DNA from: a virus
Lineage: Duplodnaviria > Caudoviricetes
Strand: one strand, 5' to 3'
IMG/VR virus record: IMGVR_UViG_3300036770_007283
DNA: 64,000 nt
Positions within the stretch are counted from its first letter, which is position 1. Each line of letters begins with the position of its first letter. The position numbers and the translations under genes are program-made. Under the pieces are notes generated by a model that was not told where the DNA came from, did no database searches, and worked only from the letters and a program-made list of their open reading frames with translations. This document shows, one piece after another, positions 2,054-57,637 of this stretch.

Positions 2054-2063
2054 TAAAAACTCC

Positions 2064-2795
2064 TTATTTTCCAGCAGAATTAGATGTATAGGTAATTCTT
2101 GCGCCATATAATTTTGTGTTTCCAACCGAGTCATCTGTGATCGATACTTGGATCACATAACTGTAATCTTCATAGTCTATCGTTACATTTGTTCCCAAGA
2201 CAATCTCTGCATATTCAACCGTTCCTACTATATTGAAAACACCACCACCACCAACGGAAGTAAAGGCACCAGTTGTATTATTAATCTTTCCAATGGCTAC
2301 GCTAAACACATCGCCGGTATCTGACCTCTCATAAGTAAGTCCTACAGTAGAAATAACAGAGCCATCTGGAAGATCTGTAATCGGTGCCCAAACCTTTCTA
2401 GTTGTAGTGGAACGAATTTGTAAGTAAGGTGGATCTTCGATCCTAAATGAAGTGGCACCATATTCTGGCACAAAAGCAACAGCAGGATAGCTTTTATATC
2501 TAGTAACTGCATCGCCAGGTGAAATAACCGTAGGAATTCTTTCAAAGTTAAGCGCCTGTCCTCCGATCAAAACACCTTGTGCTTCGATGGTGATTGCACT
2601 ATAAGCTAGAATATCTATCTCACCACTAGGGTTGACAGCATTAATTTCTAAAGTAGAATCTGTGCTAATTAACTCAGTCTTAACTTCAGGTGAGGTGACC
2701 AAATCAGAAACTGATAAATTATCTTTAATATTTACAGTTTTAGTATCACCTACCACCTCTAGCGTGTGATCATCTGAATATCTATCCTTTGCCAT
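2064..2795 (-). CDS. hypothetical protein, beta-rich, possibly virion-associated
   Basis: 243-aa ORF with RBS; S/T/V/G-rich. Confidence 0.7.
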   Translation of the reverse strand: MAKDRYSDDHTLEVVGDTKTVNIKDNLSVSDLVTSPEVKTELISTDSTLEINAVNPSGEIDILAYSAITIEAQGVLIGGQALNFERIPTVISPGDAVTRYKSYPAVAFVPEYGATSFRIEDPPYLQIRSTTTRKVWAPITDLPDGSVISTVGLTYERSDTGDVFSVAIGKINNTTGAFTSVGGGGVFNIVGTVEYAEIVLGTNVTIDYEDYSYVIQVSITDDSVGNTKLYGARITYTSNSAGK

Positions 2796-2809
2796 TCATT
2801 CTCCTGGGA

Positions 2810-3031
2810 TTAAAAAATCTCTCCTTTATATTTAATATTAGCATTATATCCCTCAGGAAAGATTTTAACTGACAAGTTGTTTCCCCAACATTGTCTTGCA
2901 TCAAAGATCACTTGCGCAATCTTTTGATAAGAACCGCCAAGATTCCTAACCCACTCTACGCCATTAAAAAGATCTGCTGTCCAAAGACAGCTGTTTTTAG
3001 GATCCAAGCTAACACAAATCCAGTTCTTCAT
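2810..3031 (-). CDS. hypothetical protein
   Basis: MKNWICVSLD...; GGAG RBS. Confidence 0.6.
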   Translation of the reverse strand: MKNWICVSLDPKNSCLWTADLFNGVEWVRNLGGSYQKIAQVIFDARQCWGNNLSVKIFPEGYNANIKYKGEIF

Positions 3032-3032
3032 T

Positions 3033-3572
3033 TTAACTCCTATTTGCATATTGACGGCAATATTCATTAACAAAGGCAGTTCCAGTCTGACTTGTATTTA
3101 GACAAAAGCCTAAACCCCACATCGGGATATGAATCTTGTCAGAATTCAAAAGAATCTCTGTTGGAACACCAGACGTCTCGTTTCCTAATACAATACAATT
3201 ATGGGTTTGAAAATCAAAACTATAATCGTAAAGACTTACCGAACCTTCTGTTAGCTCAGCAGAAACCAACTGCCAATTAGATAGTTTAGCTAAAGCTAAA
3301 AAATCTGAAGGTTTGTTGTACTGCCTAAGTTCAACAAAGTCAACCAAACTACCTGAGGAATTAAACAAGGCTTTTCTAGAAGGAATTGAACCAATAACAT
3401 GAATTGTACGAATACCATAACATGCTGCAGTTCTAATCAAAAAAGCTAAGTTTTCATCCAGTTGAAAGTTTACAGTAACTAGTGAGGCTGGTAAAGTTAC
3501 TGCTTCTTTTTGCTTACCTAAGTATCTCTCAATTCTTGTCTCTGACCGCTTCAGCCTGCTCGCTTGCAACAT
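3033..3572 (-). CDS. SpoU/TrmH-family RNA 2'-O-methyltransferase
   Basis: ENLAFLIRTAACYG, IVLGNETSGV, IHIPM..G..CLN SPOUT motifs. Confidence 0.92.
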   Translation of the reverse strand: MLQASRLKRSETRIERYLGKQKEAVTLPASLVTVNFQLDENLAFLIRTAACYGIRTIHVIGSIPSRKALFNSSGSLVDFVELRQYNKPSDFLALAKLSNWQLVSAELTEGSVSLYDYSFDFQTHNCIVLGNETSGVPTEILLNSDKIHIPMWGLGFCLNTSQTGTAFVNEYCRQYANRS

Positions 3573-3978
3573 TTACAACCTCATAGCTAAACTCACCCTT
3601 TTTAAAGTGGTGAGAAAATCCTTTGCCCTCTTGGATTAATGAAGCTAATTTAATCATAAACTCATGAGTACCCTCTTCCGCCTTAGGTTGGTTAGAATAC
3701 CAATATAAGCTAAGCTCTCTTGGTGAAGGCAACCATCGCTTTAAAAACTGCTCTGGTGTCATTGAGGCTAAGCTTGTAAAGTATCTTTTATAATCAGATA
3801 ATAAAGTAACATTATCAAATTCAGAATTGCCCATCTGCCTAGCAACAACCAAAGGTTTTGTATAATCAATCAAATCGGAAGGAATCCATCCATATTCAAC
3901 CACACCCTTTTCTTTGACAACCTGATGATACACATACGATTTACTTACACCAAGCTTGCTTTTGTAACCTTCCGACAT
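3529..3978 (-). CDS. hypothetical protein
   Basis: 149-aa ORF tiling the operon. Confidence 0.65.
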   Translation of the reverse strand: MSEGYKSKLGVSKSYVYHQVVKEKGVVEYGWIPSDLIDYTKPLVVARQMGNSEFDNVTLLSDYKRYFTSLASMTPEQFLKRWLPSPRELSLYWYSNQPKAEEGTHEFMIKLASLIQEGKGFSHHFKKGEFSYEVVNVASEQAEAVRDKN

Positions 3979-4887
3979 TTACATCCACCTTGCATAAAAG
4001 AAATTGCTCCATGCTGTATGAAACTGTTTAACCAAAACCTCGGCTAAGGTGGTAACAAAATTAGAACTAAGCTTGTCTACAAAGCCCCTCTTTTCGCCCA
4101 AGTATTTAATCTTAACAATCTCATATTTACTAATGTTCTCTAAAATATATTCATCAGAAGTCTTTAACTCATCCACAAGCTTTAGCCTAAAGGCATCTAA
4201 TCCATTCCAATGCTCACCAGTAGCAATCTCGCTAATATGCTCTGTTAAACAAGGTCGATTATGAATGATATGTTGACAAAAAGCTTGATATACGCCTAAC
4301 AAATTTTCTTTAAACTTTGCTTCGCCTTCTTGCGTCAAAGGACCAAGTGGTGAAACAGTTCTTTTAAAGGCACCTGCGGTATATTGCTTATATTCCACAC
4401 CTAAATTTTGCAATAGCTGAAAAAAGTTAGGAAATTCAGAAACCACACCAACCGAACCAATAATGGCCCAAGGTGAAGCTAAAATCTTGTCGGAAACACA
4501 AGCCATTAAGTATCCGCCAGATGCAGCGATTTTATCAACAGCGATAACCAACGGAATCTTGGCATTTTTAATTCTAGCAAGCTGAGCGGCAGCATAACCA
4601 TAAGTATGTGCTGCACCACCGGGAGAATTTAATCTAACAAGAACCTGATCCCCATCTTTAGCATTACAGATTACTGCTGTGATCTCGGAGGCTAGTGCAG
4701 AAGCCTGACTAGCTAGTGTATCACCCTCAAAGTCTAATACAAAGATCCTGTTAGCTTTATATTTACGACGCAAGAACTTAGGTTCTTCCCCAAGAGCTAA
4801 GCTTACATCATTAACAGTAGAAGCATAAATATCATTTAGACTAGTTACAGAGATAAAGTTCTTTTTATATTTTCCCCAATTAAACAT
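3979..4887 (-). CDS. sohB: S49 family serine peptidase, SohB-like
   Basis: VLDFEGD, RLNSPGG, VDKIAASGGYLMAC, AIIGSVGVV, TAGAFKRT. Confidence 0.9.
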   Translation of the reverse strand: MFNWGKYKKNFISVTSLNDIYASTVNDVSLALGEEPKFLRRKYKANRIFVLDFEGDTLASQASALASEITAVICNAKDGDQVLVRLNSPGGAAHTYGYAAAQLARIKNAKIPLVIAVDKIAASGGYLMACVSDKILASPWAIIGSVGVVSEFPNFFQLLQNLGVEYKQYTAGAFKRTVSPLGPLTQEGEAKFKENLLGVYQAFCQHIIHNRPCLTEHISEIATGEHWNGLDAFRLKLVDELKTSDEYILENISKYEIVKIKYLGEKRGFVDKLSSNFVTTLAEVLVKQFHTAWSNFFYARWM

Positions 4888-4905
4888 AACCTATCTCCTG
4901 TTAGA

Positions 4906-4934
4906 ATTATAGCCGTGCCAAATTTTTTTCTCAA
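4906..4934 (-). promoter_or_regulatory. sigma70-type promoter for sohB
   Basis: TTGAGA-17 nt-TATAAT on minus strand, followed by AGGAG RBS. Confidence 0.75.
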
Positions 4935-5020
4935 ATATTTTTTACATTTTTTTTCAAAAATAAAATTGTTCAAGAAAAAACTGGAAAATTAAACGGCTAA
5001 ATTTATTTTAAAAATTTTGC

Positions 5021-5049
5021 TTGCAAAAATGTTGCGGTGCTAGTACTAA
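5021..5049 (+). promoter_or_regulatory. divergent sigma70-type promoter
   Basis: TTGCAA-17 nt-TACTAA, with A/T tracts upstream. Confidence 0.6.
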
Positions 5050-5055
5050 GCAGAC

Positions 5056-5205
5056 ACCAGTAATCCCCGACTGGTGAAAAGGCCAGGGATGATAGTTTTC
5101 CCCACCATCCCTGGCCTTAAAAAGCGAATCACTAAGTATATCAAAGTTGGATGGACCTGGCTGAGATTATCCTAGTAGTCGCAGAACTATTTGTTCTATT
5201 TTTTT
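5056..5205 (+). ncRNA. candidate small RNA
   Basis: Downstream of + promoter; hairpins CACCAG/CTGGTG and GGCCAGGGATG/CATCCCTGGCC; ends AGAAC-TATTT-GTTCT-A-T7; no ORF. Confidence 0.4.
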
Positions 5206-5270
5206 ATAGGGTTTTTGTTGTATTGGTGCCCGAGTTTAACCACCAAAATCACGGGCGGTGGGTTTCAGAA

Positions 5271-5477
5271 TCAGCCTAGATTGTTGTTTAGGAAGTTCTG
5301 AAGTGCGCGGGCTTGACGAAGGGTTAGCCGAACCTCTACATCGGAGCGATCACCGGGAACGCGGACGACTAGGCAGTTTGATAGCATCTGCTTACGTTTT
5401 GACCCTGTGGTTAGCGCAACTTCTAGACCAGAATAATTCTTTGACTTCTCACTTGATGTTTTTGATGATGTCATCAT
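5271..5477 (-). CDS. hypothetical protein
   Basis: 68-aa ORF, AGGAGG RBS, start overlaps upstream stop. Confidence 0.7.
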   Translation of the reverse strand: MMTSSKTSSEKSKNYSGLEVALTTGSKRKQMLSNCLVVRVPGDRSDVEVRLTLRQARALQNFLNNNLG

Positions 5478-5770
5478 TTACCTCCTAGGTTAAATGGGTT
5501 GATTGAATTTGAAAAATTCTTCTTTTTAGTTTGTTTTGGTAGTTCTTTGCACAGATCTAATTCTGGCTTTTGCATTACTGGTCGGGGAGGGCTTAAAAAA
5601 ACGTCAACTGGTGTTCCCTCTGCGATTGCTTTTTCTCTCAGGGTTGGGTGTAATAAGACTGCTACCGGAAGTCCATCTTGCCCTACCCAGGTTACTATCT
5701 CGCCCATCTTTTTATAGTGATAAACCTTTGTGCCATTTTTAACTGATGCTAAAACTTGCGAAATGCTCAA
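5474..5770 (-). CDS. hypothetical protein
   Basis: 98-aa ORF with GGAGG RBS. Confidence 0.65.
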   Translation of the reverse strand: MSISQVLASVKNGTKVYHYKKMGEIVTWVGQDGLPVAVLLHPTLREKAIAEGTPVDVFLSPPRPVMQKPELDLCKELPKQTKKKNFSNSINPFNLGGK

Positions 5771-5844
5771 TCCGCCCTCCGATGCTAGTAGTATAACACT
5801 TGCAATTTTTTTATTAAAACAAATTCTGTATATAAGTTGGTAAA

Positions 5845-6186
5845 TTATGTTTTTGTTTTTTTGAATTTTTTCTCAAGTTCGTTTGCTAAACTTGTGAAGT
5901 CCATTTTTAAATTGTCATTATGAACTATCAGAAATGCTGTGATGCTGCTACACTCTGAATCGGAAATGCCAGCCCATTCCCTTACCTTTTGGGGTAGGTA
6001 GTTCACTTGGTTTAGATAAACCATTTTGTTGGAATAAGGATCTTGTTCCCAACTTCCCAACTCAGAAATATCGCATAGAACTCCCAAAGCACAGTAGCAA
6101 TCACCGACCCGTAAAGCACCTCTTACTTTTTTATACTTTTGTGAACGTAAGGCTTCTAGCCATTTTTCAAGGCAGGATTTTTTCAT
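5845..6186 (-). CDS. conserved phage hypothetical protein
   Basis: WLEALRSQKY...YCALGVLCDI motif. Confidence 0.75.
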   Translation of the reverse strand: MKKSCLEKWLEALRSQKYKKVRGALRVGDCYCALGVLCDISELGSWEQDPYSNKMVYLNQVNYLPQKVREWAGISDSECSSITAFLIVHNDNLKMDFTSLANELEKKFKKTKT

Positions 6187-6481
6187 GGATGACTCTAAGA
6201 ATTATATTTATATCATAACTAATGGTGAAGATTATAAAGTTGGATTTAGCAAGAATCCTAACAAAAGATTAAAGCAATTACAGACTGGCAATTCTAAAAA
6301 ACTAAAATTGATAAACGTATATCAAGTGCCAGATCGATTAGTTAGGATTATAGAAAAAGAAGCACATCGAGAAATTCGCATCAGATATGAAAAACGTGGC
6401 GAATGGTTCAAGGGTGCTTCTGAATTTTATGTTAAGCTTTTGGTAGATATGGTCTGTGAAAAATACTATCCACAGACCTAG
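6185..6481 (+). CDS. GIY-YIG superfamily (T5orf172/MUG113-like) protein
   Basis: YIYII...YKVGFSKNPNKRLKQLQTGN...IEKEAH...RGEWF. Confidence 0.88.
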   Translation: MDDSKNYIYIITNGEDYKVGFSKNPNKRLKQLQTGNSKKLKLINVYQVPDRLVRIIEKEAHREIRIRYEKRGEWFKGASEFYVKLLVDMVCEKYYPQT

Positions 6482-6510
6482 TGCATTATCTACAATAAAA
6501 ACGTTGGGGT

Positions 6511-6822
6511 TTAGGCAGCCGAAATGTTTTCAATTTGCGGAAGTGACTTAACCTTTTCAATCGTATCTTTTGGAATCTTAATCTTGATTGTAGGTTGAAA
6601 CATTCTATATTCAGAGTCTAGGGTGTATTTATCTAAACAAAAACTTCCGCCTAGATCCACTACCGCATTAAGTACCTTAAAGAAGTCAGTTTCATAAATC
6701 TTCTTTAATTCTTCGGTTCTTTTTTGACGAAGCTTGTAGTCTGAGCTGTAATTATAGGGGACTTGCTCCTGCTTGATTCTAATGGTGCAGTAGACGTACT
6801 TCTGCTCAATTTCTTGTGTCAT
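6511..6822 (-). CDS. hypothetical protein
   Basis: 103-aa ORF. Confidence 0.65.
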   Translation of the reverse strand: MTQEIEQKYVYCTIRIKQEQVPYNYSSDYKLRQKRTEELKKIYETDFFKVLNAVVDLGGSFCLDKYTLDSEYRMFQPTIKIKIPKDTIEKVKSLPQIENISAA

Positions 6823-8725: not shown

Positions 8726-10583
8726 TTTTTCTTTTCCTTTGTTTTCTTCTTTTTTGTGATATTGCAGACTTCTTCTCTTTGGCCGTCATTTCTTTGGTAG
8801 TCTGTGGTGTTTTCTTATTAACTCTTTTAGAGGGCCTACACTTAGGATACTTGCCAGGTTTAGCATCAGATCGACCACAGGGAGCATATTTACCAGATTT
8901 ATCCTTTCTAGAAATATCAACCCACTTTTCTTTAAACCAGCGGCCTAATCCACTATCCTTATAAACTGCAGTTTTTAAGAAATCATCTGATAGATATTCG
9001 CTCCATCTTTCTAAGAAGTAATCTATTGGGTTGTGAATCTTTGATGCTTTCTTGTGATGGTGACCATGATTCATATAATCTAGAACGTGACCAATATCAC
9101 TTACCATATCAGATATTAATGATTCTACCCACTCTGGAACTTCTTCTTCTTTGAGGGCATTCATTATATCTAATAGCATTCCAGAAGATTCTATAAGTTC
9201 TGAAAGTTGTGATAGATACATTTCATCGTTAGATTCATTTCTATGCTTCATGTAGTCAATCACATGAGACATATCTCTAGCCACTTGTGAAATAAGCGAC
9301 TCTACCCATTCTGGTATTTCATTTTCGCTAAGTGTTTCTAGGTTATCATAAAGCTCTTCAGAAGACTGTTGCAAATTAGATAACTGTCCTAAAAACATTC
9401 TATCTTCTGCTTTGTTACGCTTCTTTTTAACCTTTGATTTTCGCCATTTACCGCCTCTTTCCTTATACCATCGGCTTGCCCACGCATTGCTGTTGCCAGT
9501 GATTGTTACAGTATGCCCTTGCTTCATAACCCAAGTACCATATTCAGTCTCTGGGCACCAAACATCTCTAAGTCCTTCCACCTCACTCTTCTCTAATTTA
9601 CTACATAAAATAATCCTTCTAGATTTTATGTGGAGAGGCTTACAACTACTGCCCTTAATAATATCGCCCTCAGAAACCATATGTCCAGTTAAAAATCCAG
9701 CAAGCCTAACCGCTTCTAGGTTTGATAAATCTTTTTGACTAAATCCATAACTACAAGAATATTCTGAGTCGTTAGTTTGCCAACCATCACACATTATTGC
9801 GGAATATAAAAATGATTCAAGCTGGCTGTAAGACATAGATAGGACCATCTTTACAGGATCTGTTTTGTATTTTATATATCTATCCAAAGATGAATTTTCA
9901 TATTTTTCATCAAGCTTCGCAGATACAACCAAGAATCCATTTCCGTTTGGCAAACTTTCAACTTCACGAAGTTTGGGCATGTCAGATTTTATATTTAGCA
10001 AAAATTCTTTTAGATTTAAATCACCATATTTTTCAGACCAGTGCTGTATTGATGGAAATATTTCTCTTGCTTTATTGTATGTTAAAATTCCAGACTTTAC
10101 ATTTGAAATTATTGTATGCTTTTCTTTAGAATCTTTTATAAAAGATTCTCTTTTTTCAAACCAACTTCTAGAATATCCTAGAACTTTTTTATGATTAGGT
10201 GTGCATTCTACAGAATAAAGAAGTCCCGGAGATTCAATTTTTATAACCTTTTGACTTTTAAATCTATGCAATGATTTTACTGGTGAATATTTTAAAGAAT
10301 CACTCAAAATATCATAGCATAAAATTTCATCACTAATATTTAATTCACCTGCCCATTTCCACCCATCCCGAGTTAATGCCTGTGAATTATCTTCAGGAAC
10401 ACAATAAGCGCTGGGATATACGTCAAATTTGGCCTTTGCCGCCGCTTTTGCCCGACTCCATAAGGCTTTGTTTGTTGGTACGTTTTTAGATTTGGCAATT
10501 GTGATTATAGTATCTTCAAATAAGTCTAAGTTATTTGAATCATAATTAATACTGGCTAATTTTAATAATCTTTCTTTTGACAT
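8673..10583 (-). CDS. conserved large-phage basic protein (DUF5872-like), intein-containing
   Basis: LWSRAKAAAKAKFDVYPSAY|intein|SNAWASRWYKERGGKW; C-terminal GLGRWFKEKWVDI...PCGR...YPKCRP; two internal ~55-aa repeats (PEWVESLIS). Confidence 0.85.
   Translation of the reverse strand: MSKERLLKLASINYDSNNLDLFEDTIITIAKSKNVPTNKALWSRAKAAAKAKFDVYPSAYCVPEDNSQALTRDGWKWAGELNISDEILCYDILSDSLKYSPVKSLHRFKSQKVIKIESPGLLYSVECTPNHKKVLGYSRSWFEKRESFIKDSKEKHTIISNVKSGILTYNKAREIFPSIQHWSEKYGDLNLKEFLLNIKSDMPKLREVESLPNGNGFLVVSAKLDEKYENSSLDRYIKYKTDPVKMVLSMSYSQLESFLYSAIMCDGWQTNDSEYSCSYGFSQKDLSNLEAVRLAGFLTGHMVSEGDIIKGSSCKPLHIKSRRIILCSKLEKSEVEGLRDVWCPETEYGTWVMKQGHTVTITGNSNAWASRWYKERGGKWRKSKVKKKRNKAEDRMFLGQLSNLQQSSEELYDNLETLSENEIPEWVESLISQVARDMSHVIDYMKHRNESNDEMYLSQLSELIESSGMLLDIMNALKEEEVPEWVESLISDMVSDIGHVLDYMNHGHHHKKASKIHNPIDYFLERWSEYLSDDFLKTAVYKDSGLGRWFKEKWVDISRKDKSGKYAPCGRSDAKPGKYPKCRPSKRVNKKTPQTTKEMTAKEKKSAISQKRRKQRKRKSEGKGRKPIRDSHSKRD
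9492..10403 (-). mobile_element. intein (304 aa) with degenerate LAGLIDADG remnant
   Basis: Starts CVPEDNSQALTRDGW; block B ECTPNH; block F DVWCPETEYGTW; ends TITGN followed by Ser+1. Confidence 0.92.
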
Positions 10584-10666
10584 GAAGAACCCGGTATCCA
10601 TAAATTATTTGTTGCATTGCCAAAACAAAACATATCAATTATCAGCCGATGCTTTAGCATATAAAA

Positions 10667-21123: not shown

Positions 21124-21489
21124 TCAGTTTTTCTTGATCTTGTCTGAAAGAATATCTAGGTGAAAAAGTAAACTTTCTACTTTGGCCGGATCACAAAGAT
21201 CAAATATTTGGTCTAAATCCCAAGTGGAATTGGGGACAATCTTTCCTTCTAAATTTTTCTTGGTAGAAAGGTGGTATCCAAACCATTGCGTTTCAAAAGA
21301 CCCATCATCTAGCTTATTGATAAAGCAACCATAAATGGTTCCATCTAAAATATAAGCTTGAATACCAACTTCTTTTAATCTAGATACTAGGTTGTTATTA
21401 GGATGCCAAAACAACTCCCAATCCTGCCTAGATAATCCAGAAATACTAATATAATCGTCGTTTACTTTAGAAGTTTGGATTGTATCCAA
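21124..21489 (-). CDS. C-terminal-motif paralogue family member (divergent)
   Basis: Ends LDQIFDLCDPAKVESLLFHLDIL. Confidence 0.7.
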   Translation of the reverse strand: MDTIQTSKVNDDYISISGLSRQDWELFWHPNNNLVSRLKEVGIQAYILDGTIYGCFINKLDDGSFETQWFGYHLSTKKNLEGKIVPNSTWDLDQIFDLCDPAKVESLLFHLDILSDKIKKN

Positions 21490-33591: not shown

Positions 33592-33745
33592 AAGTCAGGA
33601 TGGGATTTTAACCCACCTCCTCTCCTAAAAGAACGTTAGTATTGCAAATTGAAAGAAAATCAAATAAAGATTAATTTGCAATTAATTTTATATTTTGCGA
33701 GCGCTCTGTAGTTCTTTCTACTAGGTATCATTGAGCTACTGACTT
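33592..33745 (-). ncRNA. tRNA-framed structured RNA, copy 1 (154 nt)
   Basis: Acceptor AAGTCAG/CTGACTT, D-stem GCTC/GAGC, T-arm GGTGGG-TTAAAAT-CCCATC; structured insert in place of the anticodon loop. Confidence 0.75.
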
Positions 33746-34107
33746 TACTTATTGTTTAAGAATGTTCTCAAATTAAACACAATTTCTTCTTTAGCTTTAT
33801 TAGAAATAAGATTACTGTCCAAAACTTCTTCCAGCGAAGTGTCTAAAAACTTTTTCTTATTTTTCTGTTTTAACTTCCAAATAAGTTTAATATCAACAAA
33901 CTCACCAATCCCACTTGGCCAAAAAACTTTTTTAACTATCAGAAAGAATCTACTTCCACGGATGTTAAATATTTCTGCATCTGGTGAATAGGCTGGACCT
34001 ATTTTTGTTAGTACAAAAGTATTCAAACTATTTAATTCATTTATTTTCTTCTGAAATCTGTCTTGGGCATCTTCATAGCTCTCAAATAAATTGTCTAATG
34101 AAATCAT
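33745..34107 (-). CDS. C-terminal-motif paralogue family member, between the two tRNA-like RNAs
   Basis: MISLDNLF...SLEEVLDSNLISNKAKEEIVFNLRTF; start trimmed to 34107. Confidence 0.7.
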   Translation of the reverse strand: MISLDNLFESYEDAQDRFQKKINELNSLNTFVLTKIGPAYSPDAEIFNIRGSRFFLIVKKVFWPSGIGEFVDIKLIWKLKQKNKKKFLDTSLEEVLDSNLISNKAKEEIVFNLRTFLNNK

Positions 34108-34117
34108 GTTGCACCAA

Positions 34118-34281
34118 AAGCCGGGGCGGGATTTTAACCCGCCTCCTCTCCTAACTATTAGGTATATAATACAAACTGGAAGAAGCCTATCGGCTAATCT
34201 GTATCTCAAATGCTTAAAAACATAGAATCTTATGGAGCGCTCTGTAGTTCCTCCTACTAAGTATCATTGAGCTACCGGCTT
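34118..34281 (-). ncRNA. tRNA-framed structured RNA, copy 2 (164 nt)
   Basis: Acceptor AAGCCGG/CCGGCTT, D-stem GCTC/GAGC, T-arm GGCGGG-TTAAAAT-CCCGCC; compensatory changes vs copy 1. Confidence 0.75.
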
Positions 34282-42257: not shown

Positions 42258-42545
42258 TCATCTTGTTACCTTGAAATAGTTAATATTAAACAGGATATCA
42301 TCTTGAGCTTCTTTTGGAATGTTATCTAGAAACTCTTCTATCTCTACCTTTCGCCACATCGTTATTGAATCTTGTAAACTTAACCTTTGTGTCATCAACT
42401 TATAATCATCAAACCCCCAAGAATACAAGATTATCCTATAATTATCATTTGCCATAAAAGCATAGTCATTTAATCTCGAGACTTTCAATGACTTCATATT
42501 CATAAGTATCTTCCGCATATCTTGTAAGCTAGGTTTTTGATTCAT
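42258..42545 (-). CDS. C-terminal-motif paralogue family member
   Basis: Ends IEEFLDNIPKEAQDDILFNINYF. Confidence 0.75.
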   Translation of the reverse strand: MNQKPSLQDMRKILMNMKSLKVSRLNDYAFMANDNYRIILYSWGFDDYKLMTQRLSLQDSITMWRKVEIEEFLDNIPKEAQDDILFNINYFKVTR

Positions 42546-45111: not shown

Positions 45112-45420
45112 TCAAAATAAATTATTTTTATTAGCAGAATCATTTTTAAGGTGGTTTATGTTAAATATTAAAAACACCTTTAAATCGTCATTGATATTTT
45201 CAAATAATTCTTCTAGAGAAGACTCAAACCAAGTATCCATACCATAGCTATTTTTAAGTATTTTTCCATAAGAAATATTATACTTATCATCATCTATTTG
45301 ATGCAATATAATTCTAAAGTTTGACCCCTTAATTGTGCAGTAAGAACCAAAACCTTTGATGCTTTCATAGGTAAAGAATTCATTATTATTAAAAAACTCT
45401 TCCATAGAATAGTAATTCAT
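45112..45420 (-). CDS. C-terminal-motif paralogue family member
   Basis: SLEELFENINDDLKVFLIFNINHL. Confidence 0.7.
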   Translation of the reverse strand: MNYYSMEEFFNNNEFFTYESIKGFGSYCTIKGSNFRIILHQIDDDKYNISYGKILKNSYGMDTWFESSLEELFENINDDLKVFLIFNINHLKNDSANKNNLF

Positions 45421-45981: not shown

Positions 45982-46266
45982 TTACCTAAAGGCATTTAGG
46001 TTGAATATTACTTTTTCTTTTGTTTCTTCATTTAAAGAATCGAAAACTTCTTCAAACGAAACAAACCCTGAGTGAGTAAATCTATTTGGCATATCATATA
46101 TCGTTTTTTTTGAAAAAAGCAAACGACCAAAAGATGTTACGCTATAATCTGTTCCGACAATATTCCACCATGTAATTAAGGTGTAGTTGCAGCTCTCACA
46201 CCCGCAAGGTTCGTTTGGTAAAACTTTTAATACAGCATTTAGTCGTTCCATATCTTGAGGATCCAT
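45982..46266 (-). CDS. C-terminal-motif paralogue family member (CxCxxC subtype)
   Basis: CGCESC...WNIVGT; ends SFEEVFDSLNEETKEKVIFNLNAFR. Confidence 0.8.
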   Translation of the reverse strand: MDPQDMERLNAVLKVLPNEPCGCESCNYTLITWWNIVGTDYSVTSFGRLLFSKKTIYDMPNRFTHSGFVSFEEVFDSLNEETKEKVIFNLNAFR

Positions 46267-51139: not shown

Positions 51140-51442
51140 TTATACTCCAAATATATCTAGGTTCCAGATTATTTTTTCCTTGATATCTTCTGGGCAAAGA
51201 TCAAAGAATTCTTCAAAAGTTACTGGCTTATATAGAAATTCAATATCTAGCTCGTTAATATGCCTTAGGTATTTTATTTTAATCCCTCCTTCTATTAGGA
51301 GGTAGACTTGAAACTTTAATTTTTGATCTTTAATATAGAAGTGATTGTAGAATTCACCAGGAGTGATAAAGTCTAAATCTGCTATTTTATCTAGGGCTTC
51401 GTAATATTTCTTGGTGTAGTCATCAGAACTATCATGACTCAT
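51140..51442 (-). CDS. C-terminal-motif paralogue family member
   Basis: TFEEFFDLCPEDIKEKIIWNLDIF. Confidence 0.8.
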   Translation of the reverse strand: MSHDSSDDYTKKYYEALDKIADLDFITPGEFYNHFYIKDQKLKFQVYLLIEGGIKIKYLRHINELDIEFLYKPVTFEEFFDLCPEDIKEKIIWNLDIFGV

Positions 51443-51626
51443 TGGAAATATCTAGATTTAGAAGCGTTTGAATTAGCTCATATTTTTTGATCGGAGGTAA
51501 AGATCTATAGTAGGAATTAATTTCTGCCGGGATTACCTTAACAGAATCATTATGATTTAGGCATGATATTGAATCATCACCCTTACAATTGGGGCAAGGT
51601 TCAAAAACATAAATATCGTAATTCAT
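51432..51626 (-). CDS. small Cys-containing protein
   Basis: CPNC...C. Confidence 0.55.
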   Translation of the reverse strand: MNYDIYVFEPCPNCKGDDSISCLNHNDSVKVIPAEINSYYRSLPPIKKYELIQTLLNLDISNES

Positions 51627-51953
51627 TTACCACAAATCCACGTATGGATTGCTTGGCCTTGTATAACCACAAATTTTATAAACCTGGCCCTTTAAGAATC
51701 CATATTGGCGATTCCATTCTGGCATAATTTTACCCTTATCTAGATTGTAGTTTTTACGCAATTTATCTAAGGTAGCCTCGCAGAACTGAGACTCCAGATC
51801 TGAAATCTTATTCATTAGAGATTCTCTTTGCTCTGGAGTGCCTGAAAAAGAACTACTCATAAGCATCTGCCTTAGGTGCCTTGAATCAGAATGAAATGAC
51901 TGCTCTAAGGTCATAGAAACTAGTTCTAGCTCCGTTTGATTATCTTGTTCCAT
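51627..51953 (-). CDS. hypothetical protein
   Basis: 108-aa ORF, GGAGG RBS. Confidence 0.7.
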   Translation of the reverse strand: MEQDNQTELELVSMTLEQSFHSDSRHLRQMLMSSSFSGTPEQRESLMNKISDLESQFCEATLDKLRKNYNLDKGKIMPEWNRQYGFLKGQVYKICGYTRPSNPYVDLW

Positions 51954-51961
51954 AATTCCTC

Positions 51962-52321
51962 CTATTTAAATAACTCGAGATTAAAAACAATCTTTTCCCT
52001 TAGATGGTCTGGAAGGAAATCGAATACTTCTTCCAGGCTATATTCGACCACCATAGTTTTTGGCATCATCGGGCATATATTGGTGAGTCGGATCTTTTGA
52101 TAGACATAAGAAGCGTAAATTACTTTTTGTGTAAGCCCTGAGATATTAGTCTTATAAGATGTTTGCTTAAACTTAACTACATCCACTGGGAGTGTAAAGC
52201 TACAAATATCACACTTACATTCAACAAATGAATCGCTTAGTAATAAAGCCTTTGCATCTTCATCTCTTTGAATTAGGTCACTTATATAGCTAACTTGTAG
52301 CTTGTTATTTATAGTTGGCAT
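51962..52321 (-). CDS. C-terminal-motif paralogue family member
   Basis: SLEEVFDFLPDHLREKIVFNLELFK. Confidence 0.8.
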   Translation of the reverse strand: MPTINNKLQVSYISDLIQRDEDAKALLLSDSFVECKCDICSFTLPVDVVKFKQTSYKTNISGLTQKVIYASYVYQKIRLTNICPMMPKTMVVEYSLEEVFDFLPDHLREKIVFNLELFK

Positions 52322-52326
52322 TTGAT

Positions 52327-52608
52327 CTACAATTCCTCTCTAGGAAGAAATTCATTCAGGTTAAAAATCAAAATATCTTTAAACTCTCCATCGACACCAT
52401 CAAAAAATTCTTCAAAGCAAATATATTGACAGTGCCTTGCAGGACTTGACCATCCACCTACTGGATAACTTACCGCATATGAAAATCCTCCATCATCTTT
52501 GGTAATCCAATATTTGGTTCCGATTATATTAAACCAAATAATATCTGATGGCTCTTCGCAACCTCCGCAATAACACTGTGCCAGTAATTCTTTTGGAAAG
52601 ATTTCCAT
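52327..52608 (-). CDS. C-terminal-motif paralogue family member (CxCxxC subtype)
   Basis: CYCGGC...WFNIIGT; CFEEFFDGVDGEFKDILIFNLNEF. Confidence 0.78.
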   Translation of the reverse strand: MEIFPKELLAQCYCGGCEEPSDIIWFNIIGTKYWITKDDGGFSYAVSYPVGGWSSPARHCQYICFEEFFDGVDGEFKDILIFNLNEFLPREEL

Positions 52609-52613
52609 TATTC

Positions 52614-52925
52614 CTACTTGAAGATATCTAAGTTGAATATAATCTTGTCCTGCCACTCTTGAGGTAGTATTTCAAACCATTCATTCATATCAATTGATTC
52701 CTGCATGATATTGCCACGATTAATGATAATAAAATATCTTTCACTTATAAAGTATCTCATACCATCATACGTAGAATCTAAACAATTTTTTCCATAAATA
52801 ACTATTCCAAAATCTGTCTTTGGAATACATAAATGGTCATATGTTACTCCGCTTTTATAAATAACAAAGCCCATATCTAGAAGTATAGCTTTGTACTCAT
52901 CGTATGTGAACTTTGTAAAATTCAT
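52614..52925 (-). CDS. C-terminal-motif paralogue family member
   Basis: DMNEWFEILPQEWQDKIIFNLDIFK. Confidence 0.8.
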   Translation of the reverse strand: MNFTKFTYDEYKAILLDMGFVIYKSGVTYDHLCIPKTDFGIVIYGKNCLDSTYDGMRYFISERYFIIINRGNIMQESIDMNEWFEILPQEWQDKIIFNLDIFK

Positions 52926-52928
52926 GCC

Positions 52929-53243
52929 TCACCGAAATAAATCTAAGTTAAATAAAATCTTTTCTTTAATATCATCAGGACACATATCAAAAAATTCTTC
53001 AAAAGGTGTGACGATATAATAGTTTGAAGAATGGTTGGATGGAATAAGATATTGAATCATTGGCCTGTTTACATCAACCTCAATAATTCTCATCCTTAGA
53101 TTCGACCCAATAAAAGAATATTGATTAGAAAACTCTCCCCTCTCAAGGAAATCTAAATTATCTAGCCGCCGATATAGTTTTGATAGAATATTTTTAGTTT
53201 TTTTCACAAGAGAATTTATATCATCAAATTCATCATCTATCAT
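52929..53243 (-). CDS. C-terminal-motif paralogue family member
   Basis: PFEEFFDMCPDDIKEKILFNLDLFR. Confidence 0.82.
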   Translation of the reverse strand: MIDDEFDDINSLVKKTKNILSKLYRRLDNLDFLERGEFSNQYSFIGSNLRMRIIEVDVNRPMIQYLIPSNHSSNYYIVTPFEEFFDMCPDDIKEKILFNLDLFR

Positions 53244-53246
53244 TTT

Positions 53247-53534
53247 TCACCTAAACATATCTAAATGAAAAGCAAAACAAGCTTGTGTTTCTGGCTTTGC
53301 AGATTCAAAAAATTCTTGGAATGTTTTGTGAGGTCGGCTTGGCAAATCCCATTGCATTATTGTAATCTTGCAACGTCGGTCTAGCGGATCTAGAGAGTTT
53401 CTCCTATCAACATAGAACATCCAATCATCACCCGCAACCTTAAAATGATTGGGCGATTCCACCAAACTCTTAAGGCAACTAATTGATTCTAAATATTCTC
53501 TAGCCTTAGAATATTCTAAGCTTTCAATCTTCAT
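53247..53534 (-). CDS. C-terminal-motif paralogue family member (MKIE subtype)
   Basis: MKIESLEY...TFQEFFESAKPETQACFAFHLDMFR. Confidence 0.82.
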   Translation of the reverse strand: MKIESLEYSKAREYLESISCLKSLVESPNHFKVAGDDWMFYVDRRNSLDPLDRRCKITIMQWDLPSRPHKTFQEFFESAKPETQACFAFHLDMFR

Positions 53535-53544
53535 AATTTATTTC

Positions 53545-53898
53545 TCACCTAAACATATCAATGTGAAAAATTAAATCAGCCTTGACTTCATCCGGTGCCA
53601 CTTCCCAAAATTCTTCAAAAGTATACATATAGCGATGCTTGGCGAAAAGCTTAGGATTCCAAAGCTTCTCTGTCAAAGATTCTTTGTAGCTTGGTGCCGG
53701 ATGTAATCCCATTATATATAGCCTATGTTTATCCTCTTGATTGTACAACTTTTGTAAACATAGTGACCAAGGATATCTACCAATGTCAATCCAGCACTCT
53801 CTTATGGTAAAATAATCATCACCAGATCCCTTAGATAAGCATGGAATCTTCAGTAAATAATCTACAGCATCTTCTAATGATAGTTTTTCAATCTTCAT
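53545..53898 (-). CDS. C-terminal-motif paralogue family member (MKIE subtype)
   Basis: MKIEKLS...TFEEFWEVAPDEVKADLIFHIDMFR. Confidence 0.82.
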   Translation of the reverse strand: MKIEKLSLEDAVDYLLKIPCLSKGSGDDYFTIRECWIDIGRYPWSLCLQKLYNQEDKHRLYIMGLHPAPSYKESLTEKLWNPKLFAKHRYMYTFEEFWEVAPDEVKADLIFHIDMFR

Positions 53899-54782
53899 AG
53901 AGAAGTCACCGTGCGTTGCGGCCAGTTAACACCAGCATAATCATTATCTGAATCCTCTCCAGAAATAGTACGAGTATCATTCCACATCAACACTCCACCA
54001 ATATAAATATTTACAGTTACATCATTAGCTGGCTGATAAACAGACCCAGGATAATCGTGAACCATTACTCTATACATTCCAGATAATGATGGCTCGGCAA
54101 TATTAATATTCTCTGGGCCTGTGCCTGGAATATCATCTATATCTAAAGCAGGATTGTCTGCACTACCAGCATTACCCCACTCCAATCCAGAACCGCCAAA
54201 TGCTGTGGTGCAGTTAGCATAATAACAATCTCCATTTGTCCTCTCGTTACCATTGGGACGAATTAAATGCAAATCCATATCATCACCGTTATGAACCCAA
54301 TACATTTCGATCCAAAGATTATCCCCAGGAACAGCATCCACAGAACAATCTACAGGATCAGAACGACGACCATCAGAGGTTTCTACAACCAATCTTGCAA
54401 TATACTGACCGGCAAGATCAGGTGTTACTTCCCGCTCCCAAGGTGATGTTGCCGCAAGAAAAGATGCCGAACCATTAGGCTGCGTTACTAATGACCAATC
54501 CCAAGTAACAATATTCATTCCTGCTGGATCATATGAATCACGACCGTAAAAGGTTGCTGTCTCAAATGGTGGTGTAACTTCAACTGGATCCACAGAGCAA
54601 ACAGCTACAGGAGAATCTCCAATAGTTTCTTCATCGGTATCTGGAATGTCTGTATCCTCGGGAATATCTATTGTAAATGCTGTATCAGAATCCTGTGTGT
54701 CCTCAGGTGGTAAGTCCTTTCCAAGATCGTAATCTGATATACAAGCTGATAATAATCCAAAAATAAAAAGTAGGTGTCGCAT
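53895..54782 (-). CDS. lipoprotein with PKD-like and YfaP-like beta domains
   Basis: Lipobox LSAC; DSYDP.G..IVTWDWSL; DMDLHL, LDIDD..GTGPENINI. Confidence 0.8.
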   Translation of the reverse strand: MRHLLFIFGLLSACISDYDLGKDLPPEDTQDSDTAFTIDIPEDTDIPDTDEETIGDSPVAVCSVDPVEVTPPFETATFYGRDSYDPAGMNIVTWDWSLVTQPNGSASFLAATSPWEREVTPDLAGQYIARLVVETSDGRRSDPVDCSVDAVPGDNLWIEMYWVHNGDDMDLHLIRPNGNERTNGDCYYANCTTAFGGSGLEWGNAGSADNPALDIDDIPGTGPENINIAEPSLSGMYRVMVHDYPGSVYQPANDVTVNIYIGGVLMWNDTRTISGEDSDNDYAGVNWPQRTVTSL

Positions 54783-54829
54783 TAATTTCTCCTATGATAT
54801 ATATATCATAATTAGCAGCCTGCATCATG

Positions 54830-55105
54830 TTAACGAAACATATCAAGGTGAAAAAGCATCTCCTGCTGAACCTCTAATGGGGCTATATCAATAAATTCTG
54901 CAAAAGATACTCTACGCCCATTAGTGTTTAAAATCTTAAGCTGACACTTATAAATATAATTATTATAAACAATTGGCACCAAAATGAACCACCAATCTGT
55001 TCCCCTAATCCTAAATGTATTCGAGTTTTGTTTCATATTTTCAAAAATTGAAATGCTTCTCAAAAACTGATTTGCAACATCAATATACAACTTTTCAATT
55101 TTCAT
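54830..55105 (-). CDS. C-terminal-motif paralogue family member (MKIE subtype)
   Basis: SFAEFIDIAPLEVQQEMLFHLDMFR. Confidence 0.82.
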   Translation of the reverse strand: MKIEKLYIDVANQFLRSISIFENMKQNSNTFRIRGTDWWFILVPIVYNNYIYKCQLKILNTNGRRVSFAEFIDIAPLEVQQEMLFHLDMFR

Positions 55106-55108
55106 AAG

Positions 55109-55372
55109 TCACCTAAATAGATCTAAATGATAAACTATTTTATCCTTGATGGTTTCCGGCAATTCATCAAAAACTTTTTCGAATGTAAAATTATCGTTAA
55201 AATTAACCGTAGAGATAAATTCTCCTTGCCCCATACCAGAATCATTTTTGAAAACATAAAATACATAATAAGTGCCGGTAACATAATATGAGATGTAATT
55301 TTTATTACGCAATCCTCTTGGTGTTAGAAAGTCTAATTCATCAAGATTTCTAACAAGATCTTCGTAGCTCAT
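55109..55372 (-). CDS. C-terminal-motif paralogue family member
   Basis: TFEKVFDELPETIKDKIVYHLDLFR. Confidence 0.82.
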   Translation of the reverse strand: MSYEDLVRNLDELDFLTPRGLRNKNYISYYVTGTYYVFYVFKNDSGMGQGEFISTVNFNDNFTFEKVFDELPETIKDKIVYHLDLFR

Positions 55373-55380
55373 AATTCACC

Positions 55381-55671
55381 TCACCGAAATAAATCAAAAT
55401 TGAAAAGAAGATCTTCCCTAGATCCTTCATCACAACTATTAAAAACTTCCTCAAAGGTTACAATGCTTCTATGCTGAGTTTTCCAATCCATAAATAAAAC
55501 CATACATTTACTTCCTTTAGGCGTCCAATATTTGTTTTCAGGCCCTACCCAAATAACATATTTGGTTTCCCCAACTCTAAAGTGCTGATCCGATGTTGGA
55601 GTTTCTTTAAAGCAGGAAATTGATTTCACAGCAGCCAAAGCTTCTTCGTAGGATAACTTATCAATCTTCAT
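55381..55671 (-). CDS. C-terminal-motif paralogue family member (MKID subtype)
   Basis: TFEEVFNSCDEGSREDLLFNFDLFR. Confidence 0.82.
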   Translation of the reverse strand: MKIDKLSYEEALAAVKSISCFKETPTSDQHFRVGETKYVIWVGPENKYWTPKGSKCMVLFMDWKTQHRSIVTFEEVFNSCDEGSREDLLFNFDLFR

Positions 55672-55674
55672 CCA

Positions 55675-55971
55675 TCACCTAAACATATCAATGTGAAAAA
55701 GAAATTCTTCTTGAATATGCTCGGGAACAGACTCTAAAAAATCTTCAAAATCTATACCGTATGCTACTCCACCGTCGTCATACGTTAGATTAATTATAAA
55801 CTTACAGCAAAACAATCCATTCATCGACGGAATCCTTACAACAATATTATAATTTTCCGCGCCAACTACTATAAACTGTTTCTCCAGAAGGTAAGAACCA
55901 ACTGGCTTTAAGCAGGATAGCTGAGAAAGAAAACTCTCTGCTTCGTTAATACTCATATCTTCAATCTTCAT
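55675..55971 (-). CDS. C-terminal-motif paralogue family member (MKIE subtype)
   Basis: DFEDFLESVPEHIQEEFLFHIDMFR. Confidence 0.82.
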   Translation of the reverse strand: MKIEDMSINEAESFLSQLSCLKPVGSYLLEKQFIVVGAENYNIVVRIPSMNGLFCCKFIINLTYDDGGVAYGIDFEDFLESVPEHIQEEFLFHIDMFR

Positions 55972-56003
55972 TTAGCCTCCTGTAAAATATCTTCTCACAA
56001 GAT

Positions 56004-56288
56004 CTATCCTAGCAAATCCATATGCCACAAAAATTCTTCCCTTGCTTCCTCAGGCAGTTCCTCAAAAAATTGTTCGCGGCTAAGATGCCCGCCGCTGATA
56101 AGATGCTCCTCCGCATTAAGCTTTCTCATAAAATTAAGCTTCGAGGTTTTGTTGTTAAAATTTAATCCAATAGAAATATATAGATCAGAATTTTTCACCC
56201 GCCAATCTGCAAATCCAACCGCAGGCTCCAAACATCTAATCTTGGCAAGCTCTTTGTTGTATGCGCTATATTCTCTAGATGTTTTCAT
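56004..56288 (-). CDS. C-terminal-motif paralogue family member
   Basis: SREQFFEELPEEAREEFLWHMDLLG. Confidence 0.78.
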   Translation of the reverse strand: MKTSREYSAYNKELAKIRCLEPAVGFADWRVKNSDLYISIGLNFNNKTSKLNFMRKLNAEEHLISGGHLSREQFFEELPEEAREEFLWHMDLLG

Positions 56289-56299
56289 AACTCCCTTCT

Positions 56300-56644
56300 T
56301 CACCTAAACATATCTAAATGGAAAACTAAATCATTCTGAATATGAGATGGTGCCGCCTCAAAAAATTCATCAAACAAATAAATAAATTTATTGTTAATAT
56401 ATGGTTGAGGGTGGAAAGCAGCAGCATTTTTTTTAAAATTATTGGTTGGCGAAGGAGCCGTCCCAAGAAAAAGCAATCTACACTTTTCTTTCTGATGATA
56501 TAATCTATATAGCTGAAGCTGCCATTGTGTACCAGAAACTTCAAGCCAACGTTCATCGACTGTAGAAAGTCTTACGCAAAATATAGAAGGAATTCCTACA
56601 AGATAATCGGACGCTTCTTCTAATGTCATGTATTCAATCTTCAT
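56300..56644 (-). CDS. C-terminal-motif paralogue family member (MKIE subtype)
   Basis: LFDEFFEAAPSHIQNDLVFHLDMFR. Confidence 0.82.
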   Translation of the reverse strand: MKIEYMTLEEASDYLVGIPSIFCVRLSTVDERWLEVSGTQWQLQLYRLYHQKEKCRLLFLGTAPSPTNNFKKNAAAFHPQPYINNKFIYLFDEFFEAAPSHIQNDLVFHLDMFR

Positions 56645-56712: not shown

Positions 56713-57264
56713 ATGATATTTGGTAGGAGTGGAATTATGAATGTTAAATATAGATTGTTAAGATTATCCAAATTTCTTGGGGAAAATGGATTATACAAAG
56801 AGGCTTCCGCATTGAAATCTTTGGCAAGCTCCGTATACAGCGAGCCATCAAAAGATTTAATTGAATCCGCAAGAAATGTAAAAAATATAAAATGGAAAGA
56901 ACCAGATATCGAAGAAGAAATAGGAGAGATCGTTAGGACCGCCAAAGAATTTGACGTACCACTAGATGATATTATAGGTGCAGTAAAAGAGGCTAAATTA
57001 GAAGAGATTACTGATGATGTCTGGAGCCAGTTACAGAATACAGATTCTTATAATATATCAGTCGAACAAGCCCTTGAATTATCTAAAGAATACAATAGAA
57101 ATATATCCCGTATATATAAAGGCATTAAAAACGGAAAAACTCTACCTGCTCCAATAGTTCTCTCTATTAACGATGAAGAGTTCTATTTAATAGGTGGAAA
57201 CACTAGACTTATGGCTTGTGCTAGTTTGAATAAAGTTCCCAAGGTATTGATGATTAAAATATAA
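56713..57264 (+). CDS. ParB/sulfiredoxin-like domain protein
   Basis: LPAPIVL...YLIGGNTRL; start may be ATG 56737. Confidence 0.75.
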   Translation: MIFGRSGIMNVKYRLLRLSKFLGENGLYKEASALKSLASSVYSEPSKDLIESARNVKNIKWKEPDIEEEIGEIVRTAKEFDVPLDDIIGAVKEAKLEEITDDVWSQLQNTDSYNISVEQALELSKEYNRNISRIYKGIKNGKTLPAPIVLSINDEEFYLIGGNTRLMACASLNKVPKVLMIKI

Positions 57265-57453
57265 GACCTAGAATTTTTGCCTCTATAAGTAGCTGAGTCT
57301 TTAGAGGTAATCAAACAGTATTTTTTGATGACTAAATTCTCAGCAAATTACGACCCTAAGAAACAAATGATGGGGCGTAATTGCATCTGGTTTTTAATCC
57401 AAACGAACTACGCCCCAATCTTTGGGTTTTTATGCAGGATTTACCTTGGTAAT

Positions 57454-57537
57454 TGGTAGGGCGTGTAAGAATCGAACTTACCTATTTGTGATCCGAGGAT
57501 ATAAGCCCCGCGCTTTACACCAGTCAGCCAACGCCCC
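57454..57537 (-). tRNA. tRNA with UAU anticodon (nominal Ile) and 12-nt variable region
   Basis: GGGGCGT/ACGCCCT, CGGGG-CTTATAT-CCTCG, GTAAG-TTCGATT-CTTAC, A73, CCA; 84 nt. Confidence 0.88.
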
Positions 57538-57637
57538 ATTATAAGATTCTTTGATTACCGGCATTGATTGCCGCGATCCTTGTATGCTATTATATTACTG
57601 CGGGATCGTATTGGAGTCAAACGAAGTTTTAAAAAAT

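Follow-up and report, generated by a model that had tools for sequence, protein, structure and literature searches.

Why would a bacterial virus keep 18 versions of one small protein, most of them side by side? The question is raised by a 64,000-nucleotide stretch (hereafter, the window) of the virus record IMGVR_UViG_3300036770_007283 (Caudoviricetes). Here, the minus-strand array at 51140–56644 holds 13 copies of a gene family, and five more copies are dispersed at 21124, 33745, 42258, 45112, and 45982. The structural and evolutionary description of this family is well supported: its members are predicted to share one compact fold with a conserved helical layer and a hypervariable sheet face, and single genes come and go between close strains. 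The further steps, to binding and to action against the host, we infer from that description.

Eighteen copies of one small gene

We built a full-length Hidden Markov Model (HMM) from a 138-sequence alignment of metagenomic relatives and window members (A2) and applied it to the six-frame translation of the window. It matched 18 open reading frames (ORFs) with E-values from 1e-22 to 8e-10 and most of the profile covered; the next-best ORF had an E-value of 0.24. The copies at 21124, 33745, and 45112 are absent from A2, yet its HMM recovered them. These 18 are exactly the array and dispersed genes listed in an earlier note made from the sequence alone, with four starts improved: 56288 for g56004, 52608 for g52327, 42545 for g42258, and probably 34107 for g33745. 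By other means, a regular-expression scan found the 13 array genes and 21124, and a 31-residue HMM of the C-terminal module, derived from the 13 array genes, detected 45982 and 42258 clearly and 21124 marginally. The copies are real, far beyond chance, and the reading frame is intact in 18 of 18. Within the array, the family accounts for 13 of 16 ORFs, interrupted by three non-family ORFs (51432–51626, 51627–51953, and 53895–54782). The array, from its first gene to its last, and the dispersed members are as follows, with lengths in amino acids (aa) and E-values from the full-length HMM.

56300..56644, minus strand: member 1 (g56300), 114 aa, MKIE subtype, first gene of the array; E 5.7e-18
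56004..56288, minus strand: member 2 (g56004), 94 aa from ATG, start after P0003; E 9.6e-21; not in strain L010
55675..55971, minus strand: member 3 (g55675), 98 aa, MKIE subtype; modelled representative, predicted local distance difference test (pLDDT) 93.9, predicted template modelling score (pTM) 0.83
55381..55671, minus strand: member 4, 96 aa, MKIE subtype; E 1.4e-22
55109..55372, minus strand: member 5 (g55109), 87 aa, LDxLDFL subtype; E 2.3e-22; run X5 lacks members 5 and 6
54830..55105, minus strand: member 6 (g54830), 91 aa, MKIE subtype; E 3.2e-20; runs X4 and X5 lack it
53895..54782, minus strand: non-family insert encoding 295 aa, with a lipobox-type L-S-A-C close to the N-terminus as a lipoprotein-like signal; no family HMM match
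53545..53898, minus strand: member 7 (g53545), 117 aa, MKIE subtype; E 6.1e-20; nearest paralog in the tree is member 1
53247..53534, minus strand: member 8 (g53247), 95 aa, MKIE subtype; E 2.2e-21
52929..53243, minus strand: member 9, 104 aa, LDxLDFL subtype; E 1.4e-22
52614..52925, minus strand: member 10 (g52614), 103 aa; E 5.7e-16; probably missing in run X5
52327..52608, minus strand: member 11 (g52327), 93 aa from ATG, CxCxxC subtype; E 1.2e-12; second modelled representative
51962..52321, minus strand: member 12, 119 aa; E 2.5e-14
51432..51953, minus strand: two small non-family ORFs (108 aa and 64 aa); no family HMM match at E < 6
51140..51442, minus strand: member 13, 100 aa, LDxLDFL subtype, last gene of the array; E 1.3e-22
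45982..46266, minus strand: dispersed member 14, 94 aa, CxCxxC subtype; E 1.7e-16
45112..45420, minus strand: dispersed member 15, 102 aa, divergent C-terminus; E 1.3e-10
42258..42545, minus strand: dispersed member 16 (g42258), 95 aa, start after P0020; E 5.9e-18
33745..34107, minus strand: dispersed member 17 (g33745), about 120 aa from an internal ATG; E 7.8e-10
21124..21489, minus strand: dispersed member 18 (g21124), 121 aa, uniformly conserved core gene; E 1e-11

The C-terminal consensus given in the earlier note is accurate: column statistics yield [VI]-[ST]-F-E-E-[VF]-[FL]-[DE]-x-[VL]-P-x-E-I-[QK]-E-x-[LI]-[LI]-F-[HN]-L-D-L-F-[RK]. The three N-terminal subtypes that it distinguished are also real, with six genes of the MKIE type, three of LDxLDFL, and two to three of CxCxxC, as is the contrast that it drew between divergent N-termini and a common module, given a mean pairwise identity among the copies of 15% in the N-part vs 39% in the C-part. 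By charge, 15 of the 18 copies are acidic and two are basic, g33745 with an isoelectric point of ~9.7 (for the longer ORF). A hydrophobic-segment check found neither a signal peptide nor a transmembrane segment in the members.

One predicted fold with a variable face

The earlier note proposed that the C-terminal module is a common tag that docks onto one partner, joined to diversified domains. AlphaFold2, run on A2 for g55675, predicted a single compact domain of alpha-beta4-alpha3 order (pLDDT 93.9, pTM 0.83), with a helix at residues 8–16, strands at 21–27, 30–35, 41–46, and 57–63, and helices at 75–81, 84–92, and 94–97; the MKIE N-terminus forms part of helix 1. For g52327, of the most deviant subtype (CxCxxC), the model has the same four strands and three helices (pLDDT 79), and the position of helix 1 is taken by a short strand and a Cys-rich loop. 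In both models, the C-terminal helices pack onto the sheet. Moreover, the conserved positions of the module are mostly hydrophobic and spaced with helical periodicity (F75, [VF]78, [FL]79, I86, L90, L91, F92, L94, L96, and F97), which argues for core residues rather than a free tag.

The N-parts are themselves homologous. An HMM of the N-part alone, built from 123 metagenomic sequences with the C module removed and no window sequence among them, placed the 18 window N-parts ahead of every other six-frame ORF, with E < 0.01 for 16 of them. Nor is the module always terminal, as it is internal in 17 of 148 relatives (11%), where 8–107 residues come after it. The tag-plus-domains architecture therefore fails: two subtype models show one domain, and one fold for all N-termini was the outcome that the earlier note itself had named as counting against its proposal. 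What survives of its modular effector reading is a diversified accessory repertoire, which fits host interaction.

Conservation across this predicted fold is graded. The N-part retains a skeleton of L15, [FCL]20-[LF]21, an aromatic residue at 33, [LIV]35, G37, T38 (71%), Y41, hydrophobic residues at 43 and 45, and W60 (64%). Entropy is lowest in the C module (1.87 bits), followed by inward-facing strand positions (2.34 bits), which are conserved and hydrophobic. It reaches 3.83 bits at outward-facing strand positions, defined as those alternating with the conserved hydrophobic ones and expected to point away from the helices, and 3.90 bits in loops. Half of the residues at the outward-facing positions are polar, Tyr is the commonest, and variability there is near-maximal. 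Thus, on the models, all members share one fold in which the C-terminal helices and inward strand residues are conserved and the exposed sheet face and loops are hypervariable. This would be a two-layer alpha/beta protein, in which the C module and the N-terminal helix form a helical layer packed on one face of the sheet, as part of the fold, and the other, diversified face is left free. That free face is a candidate binding surface.

No known family accounts for these proteins, in line with what the earlier note had said of the module. Pfam and PHROG searches with ten window members returned nothing below E 0.01, all 138 members of A2 gave just isolated single-member matches to Pfam and PHROGs v4, and PADLOC-DB held no match to the family. 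A sequence-profile search of the PDB found no true match, with a best E-value of 0.98 for the A5 subfamily (g21124-type); the best PDB sequence match, Legionella SetA (E 0.044, 17 bits), was judged to be chance. By structure, Foldseek searches of the PDB, AFDB clusters, and BFVD produced no match above background, and neither did the ESM Atlas, queried by shape and by features, or VIA-align against 48,161 chains with both models, including a second look. The protein family is thus undescribed, and its fold is probably so too.

Two structural resemblances deserve mention nonetheless. Each model finds its top structural match in lentiviral Vif, whose alpha/beta domain (PDB 8cx0_B, 8h0i_C, 8j62_C, and 6nil_C) superposes with Z 6.3 (root-mean-square deviation 3.3 over 90 residues) and 6.0, and with Z 5.0 for the second model, where the best Z of the tool in the absence of a true match is typically 7–8. 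Vif, at 8–11% sequence identity to the family, is likewise a small alpha+beta viral protein, and it binds a host restriction factor. Its hallmarks are an HCCH zinc-binding motif and a BC-box. The His/Cys zinc motif is not found in the family, which has no conserved His or Cys columns besides H/N93 and has Cys solely in the N-terminus of the CxCxxC subtype. We treat the resemblance as a lead and claim no relationship, as the scores lie within noise. The second resemblance is to UBC/E2, Atg10, and RWD-type folds, which have the same element order (a helix, four strands, and C-terminal helices). Foldseek lists many E2 and Atg10 chains (E ≥ 0.25, template modelling score 0.3–0.45, probability 0.25–0.63), and second-look VIA Z values of Atg10 and Atg3 against the family model are 3.2–3.3. 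The HPN motif and the catalytic Cys that follow strand 4 in UBC/E2 are not conserved in the family, where loop 62–72 is among the most variable parts; in the g21124 subfamily, a WHPN stands ahead of strand 1, not behind strand 4.

A docking role for the C-terminal helices can still be framed within a single fold: they would attach all paralogs to one phage or host hub, and the variable part would recruit targets, giving a repertoire of adaptors. The module does carry conserved, exposed acidic or polar positions besides its core hydrophobics (E76 (85%), E/D77, D/E80, E85, E88, H/N93, and D95 (84%)). In four ortholog pairs, protein divergence of the N-part is 2–10 times that of the C-part; member 8 and its ortholog P0024 differ by 41% in the N-part and 4% in the C-part, and member 9 and its ortholog P0022 by 21% and 4%. 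The noise-level resemblance to Vif also points to a protein that is itself a viral adaptor. Nonetheless, we consider this version unlikely. The module is integral to a single domain in both models, its conservation is largely accounted for by core packing and helix capping, it is not C-terminal in the 11% of relatives noted above, no constant neighbour gene was found across the family loci, and the Vif match, at Z ≤ 6.3, falls within the range of unrelated folds.

Gene turnover, distribution, and candidate functions

The window is part of a large uncultured phage, and its proteins were found on a contig of ~253 kb. It encodes a prohead protease, a phage lysozyme, a class II aminoacyl-tRNA synthetase (aaRS), two AAA ATPases (one with an intein), an RNA ligase, and three tRNA genes. 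Near-identical DNA is present in subsurface metagenomes, and freshwater and lake sequencing runs contain 23–39% of the sampled words of the array.

An exhaustive profile search of metagenomes identified 253 relatives at E ≤ 0.001, nearly all of 80–120 aa and matching the profile end to end. They are known from metagenomes only; one is filed under an archaeal metagenome-assembled genome, probably a binning artefact. Readable contexts are those of large phages, with helicase, DnaB, PrkA, ribonucleotide reductase, PhoH, lysozyme, aaRS, AAA, FtsH-like protease, and SPFH genes. Multiple copies are usual: three in tandem on L001, four on L008, three on the Tara contig L002, two on L009, two to four at each of ten Joint Genome Institute (JGI) loci of 1–11 kb, and at least two confirmed members among six adjacent genes of 90–120 residues on another contig. 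The 18 copies of the window are the largest set among the contigs examined. Searches of narrower reach returned no relatives: blastn and tblastn against GenBank phages and IMG/VR with two single proteins as queries, both limited searches that do not prove absence, and two pattern-limited scans, one of GTDB genomes with a peptide pattern and the other of JGI metagenomes anchored on the flanking RNA ligase. A degenerate DNA pattern, equally pattern-limited, gave 10 matches in IMG/VR, all due to chance.

Separately, two contigs hold arrangements of their own. On L002 (122 kb), ORFs at 1632–2222 and 10001–10606 carry the family domain inside longer proteins: a product of 201 aa extends ~105 residues beyond the domain, and in a 196-aa ORF, the domain is C-terminal with a partial second match ahead of it. 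On L029, a phage contig with two members, region 3777–6628 has an adjacent 674-aa FtsH-like AAA/M41 protease and an SPFH/Band 7 protein.

The array itself forms one minus-strand operon with translational coupling, in a part of the genome that is variable and non-structural. Stop-to-start spacing is mostly 3–11 bases, and member 13 shares 11 nt with the start of the RNA ligase gene. Eight array genes have Arg as their last residue, and in seven of these the codon is NGG and the stop TGA, placing (A/C)GGTGA 3–11 bases ahead of the next ATG; by comparison, NGG has a 20% share among Arg codons in 15 long window genes. The exception, g54830, ends in CGT TAA and has a 47-base gap behind it, and the g56300 ortholog in L010, with no close following gene, has AGA as its last Arg codon. 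The terminal Arg and stop codons thus double as the Shine-Dalgarno sequence of the next gene, a reading that the codon-usage test supports, and conservation of the last residues partly reflects translation initiation of the neighbour. The T4 late-promoter motif TATAAATA was not enriched (12 found vs 9.6 expected), and scans for sigma-70-like promoters and terminators were at background level, so that no expression class can be assigned.

The paralogs are old. By maximum likelihood, a tree of 169 members places most of the window paralogs nearer to a protein of another phage than to any paralog, and distances between paralogs exceed 2 substitutions per site, except for g56300/g53545 at 1.3. These distances, together with orthologs in other phages, indicate an old family in which each paralog has been individually maintained. 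Such divergence also bears on the idea that the family acts as a sponge or mimic, each protein holding a small molecule or nucleic acid in a conserved pocket, with the copies providing dosage or ligand variants. In size, the proteins resemble known phage sponges and DNA mimics; most copies are acidic as well as small and soluble, and strong conservation across the family extends to a few polar positions (T38, E76, H/N93, and D95). The paralogs are too diverged for dosage, however, two of them are basic, and no fold or sequence match links the family to a known sponge or mimic, which makes this role quite improbable.

Between close strains, turnover occurs gene by gene. Run X4 joins position 54819 to 55104, removing g54830, and run X5 joins 54819 to 55380, removing g54830 and g55109; a further X5 joint, 52602 to 52920, for which the letters between are not known, has probably lost g52614. 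In the JGI contig L010, 20 nt replace window positions 55983–56299, and g56004 is gone between flanks of 97.5% identity. In a further contig, the counterparts of g53545 and g53247 have an additional MKIE-type member between them. The gene-deleted contigs come from other habitats, and their flanks are 95–99% identical. Unequal crossing-over at the conserved 3′ block was considered as the source of these deletions but is not supported, as the junctions in X4, X5, and L010 sit in spacers with 5–20 filler bases.

Selection on the members appears heterogeneous, purifying in some and relaxed or positive in others. Compared with its L010 ortholog, g56300 has nine synonymous and no nonsynonymous differences (synonymous divergence, dS, 0.14), and g55675 has six nonsynonymous and one synonymous, hitting four N-part codons and one C-part codon. 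Tandem copies that vary in presence between strains could, in principle, be a residue of neutral or selfish amplification without distinct functions. This explanation is already disfavoured, and we regard it as very improbable: 18 intact frames, deep divergence, orthologs of single paralogs in other phages, the silent-only changes of g56300, and the maintained start, stop, and ribosome-binding signals all speak against it.

Taken together, a soluble domain with a hypervariable face, ancient paralogs that are kept, turnover in gene units, mixed selection, and a location in a variable region lead us to propose that the family is an accessory, fast-turnover repertoire of cytoplasmic binders, whose targets would probably be the host or its defences. 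We give this proposal about an even chance of being right. Each paralog would bind a different protein of the infected cell through its variable sheet face, most likely a host factor such as a defence or takeover target, and the phage would keep, swap, or lose paralogs as whole-gene units as its hosts change.

Several observations weigh against this proposal. The family matches none of the anti-defence, immunity, or defence families among Pfam, PHROG, and PADLOC profiles; the selection contrast comes from two ortholog pairs with 7–9 differences each; and the acidic residues conserved on the C-terminal helices might form a functional surface common to the members, in line with the earlier note. 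In addition, the g21124 copy behaves differently. Its N- and C-parts are equally conserved among orthologs, its subfamily carries invariant polar motifs (W-H-P-N, Y-G-C-F, E-T-Q-W-F-G-x-H, and E-G-K-x-V-P), and its synteny is retained: aaRS, AAA ATPase, an unrelated gene, the member, and a convergent NucT/PLD-type nuclease. This pattern suggests that g21124 serves a constant, phage-internal function, and the subfamily looks like a version of the fold with one specific, constant task.

Could the whole family, then, serve processes of the phage itself, for instance by regulating, chaperoning, or giving specificity to phage-encoded machines such as its AAA+ ATPases or proteases, with a paralog per client? 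The g21124-type core gene is kept downstream of the conserved AAA ATPase and aaRS genes in relatives, and at the L029 locus members lie near a phage FtsH-like protease and an SPFH protein. Set against this, array members vary in presence between near-identical strains, which is atypical of essential machinery, and an unrelated gene separates the AAA gene from the member in relatives; a phage-internal role for the family is therefore unlikely. A further reading combines docking with host targets: in a new, phage-specific binder scaffold, the acidic helical face would tie all paralogs to a single machine, for instance a protease or unfoldase of the phage or host, and the hypervariable sheet face would capture various defence proteins of the host. 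We think this rather unlikely too. A role as a T4-type capsid internal protein was considered but gains little support: the putative prohead-protease motif [LIMF]-x-K-x-A occurs in only 3 of 18 members, at non-equivalent places, and the MKIE N-terminus belongs to helix 1 of the predicted fold.

Besides the family, the array and its surroundings contain other elements. The 295-aa insert ORF lies mid-array behind the 47-base gap, with a sigma-70-like site (54833–54805) just upstream; it is kept in the related strains X5 and X9 and has a weak Pfam match to K319L-like_PKD (E 3.6e-4, below the curated cutoff). It is a candidate moron with a role at the cell envelope. The two small ORFs at 51432–51953 (108 and 64 aa) had no NCBIfam match in a search that covered these two non-family ORFs only. 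The tail of the 64-aa ORF (51432–51626) loosely resembles the last helix pair of the family, but its E-value of 9.7 is not significant, and we rejected it as a decayed member. An Rfam scan of window positions 33592–34281, the stretch holding g33745, gave no significant match.

The region adjoining the array is also rearranged in L010. At window positions 57264–57546, a tRNA-Ile gene with anticodon TAT (57454–57537) lies between flanks 95–97% identical to L010, which at the same position (1673–3344) has ~1.7 kb with a PF01171 (TilS-like ATP_bind_3) gene and a 254-aa ORF. The tRNA-Ile(TAT) and TilS-like genes may be cassette-swapped alternatives for decoding AUA codons.

Relation to known multigene systems

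Amplified or shuffled accessory and anti-defence genes have precedents in large phages (PMC9391042, PMC13096335, PMC2839356, and PMC4122927; reviewed in PMC13359090). The hyperplastic regions of T4-type phages are likewise blocks of small genes of unknown function between core genes, with whole-gene insertions, deletions, and replacements between phages >95% identical (PMC2839356 and PMC4122927). Unlike those regions, the present block is filled by one homologous family (13 of 16 ORFs), and its deletion junctions lie in short spacers with filler bases. The promoter-stem-loop cassette of T4-type phages was not seen in this array.

Tandem multi-copy accessory genes that change in copy number between close strains are also known from amplified anti-defence genes of T-even phages (PMC9391042 and PMC13096335) and, as far as the account of Elde 2012 in the review goes, from the "genomic accordions" of poxviruses (PMC13359090). 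Those amplifications are recent and near-identical, whereas the paralogs described here are ancient (>2 substitutions per site) and individually kept in other phages. The multigene families (MGF) of African swine fever virus and the host-range families of poxviruses consist of diverged paralogs in variable regions, are gained and lost between strains, and are thought to tune host interaction. They belong to a different virus realm and comprise unrelated proteins, and the family in the window differs from them in being very small, single-domain, and encoded in a coupled operon. The window and its close genomes display two features of accordions and cassettes: diverged tandem paralogs and variation in presence between close genomes. 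Large viruses with diversified multigene families of accessory genes are known; the protein family itself is new.

Large phages spend much of their extra DNA on genes of unknown function, and here one family supplies 18 such genes and recurs in multiple copies in many uncultured large phages. The ends of the array genes also provide a clean example of coding sequence shaped by the ribosome-binding site of a neighbour. Should the copies bind host proteins in a target-specific manner, they would be a new source of counter-defence or takeover factors and a compact natural binder scaffold; should they not be binders, they would still make up a sizeable new protein family for annotation. If the adaptor reading were true, the family would play the part of Vif-like adaptors in a bacterial virus, with a repertoire reshuffled gene by gene between strains.

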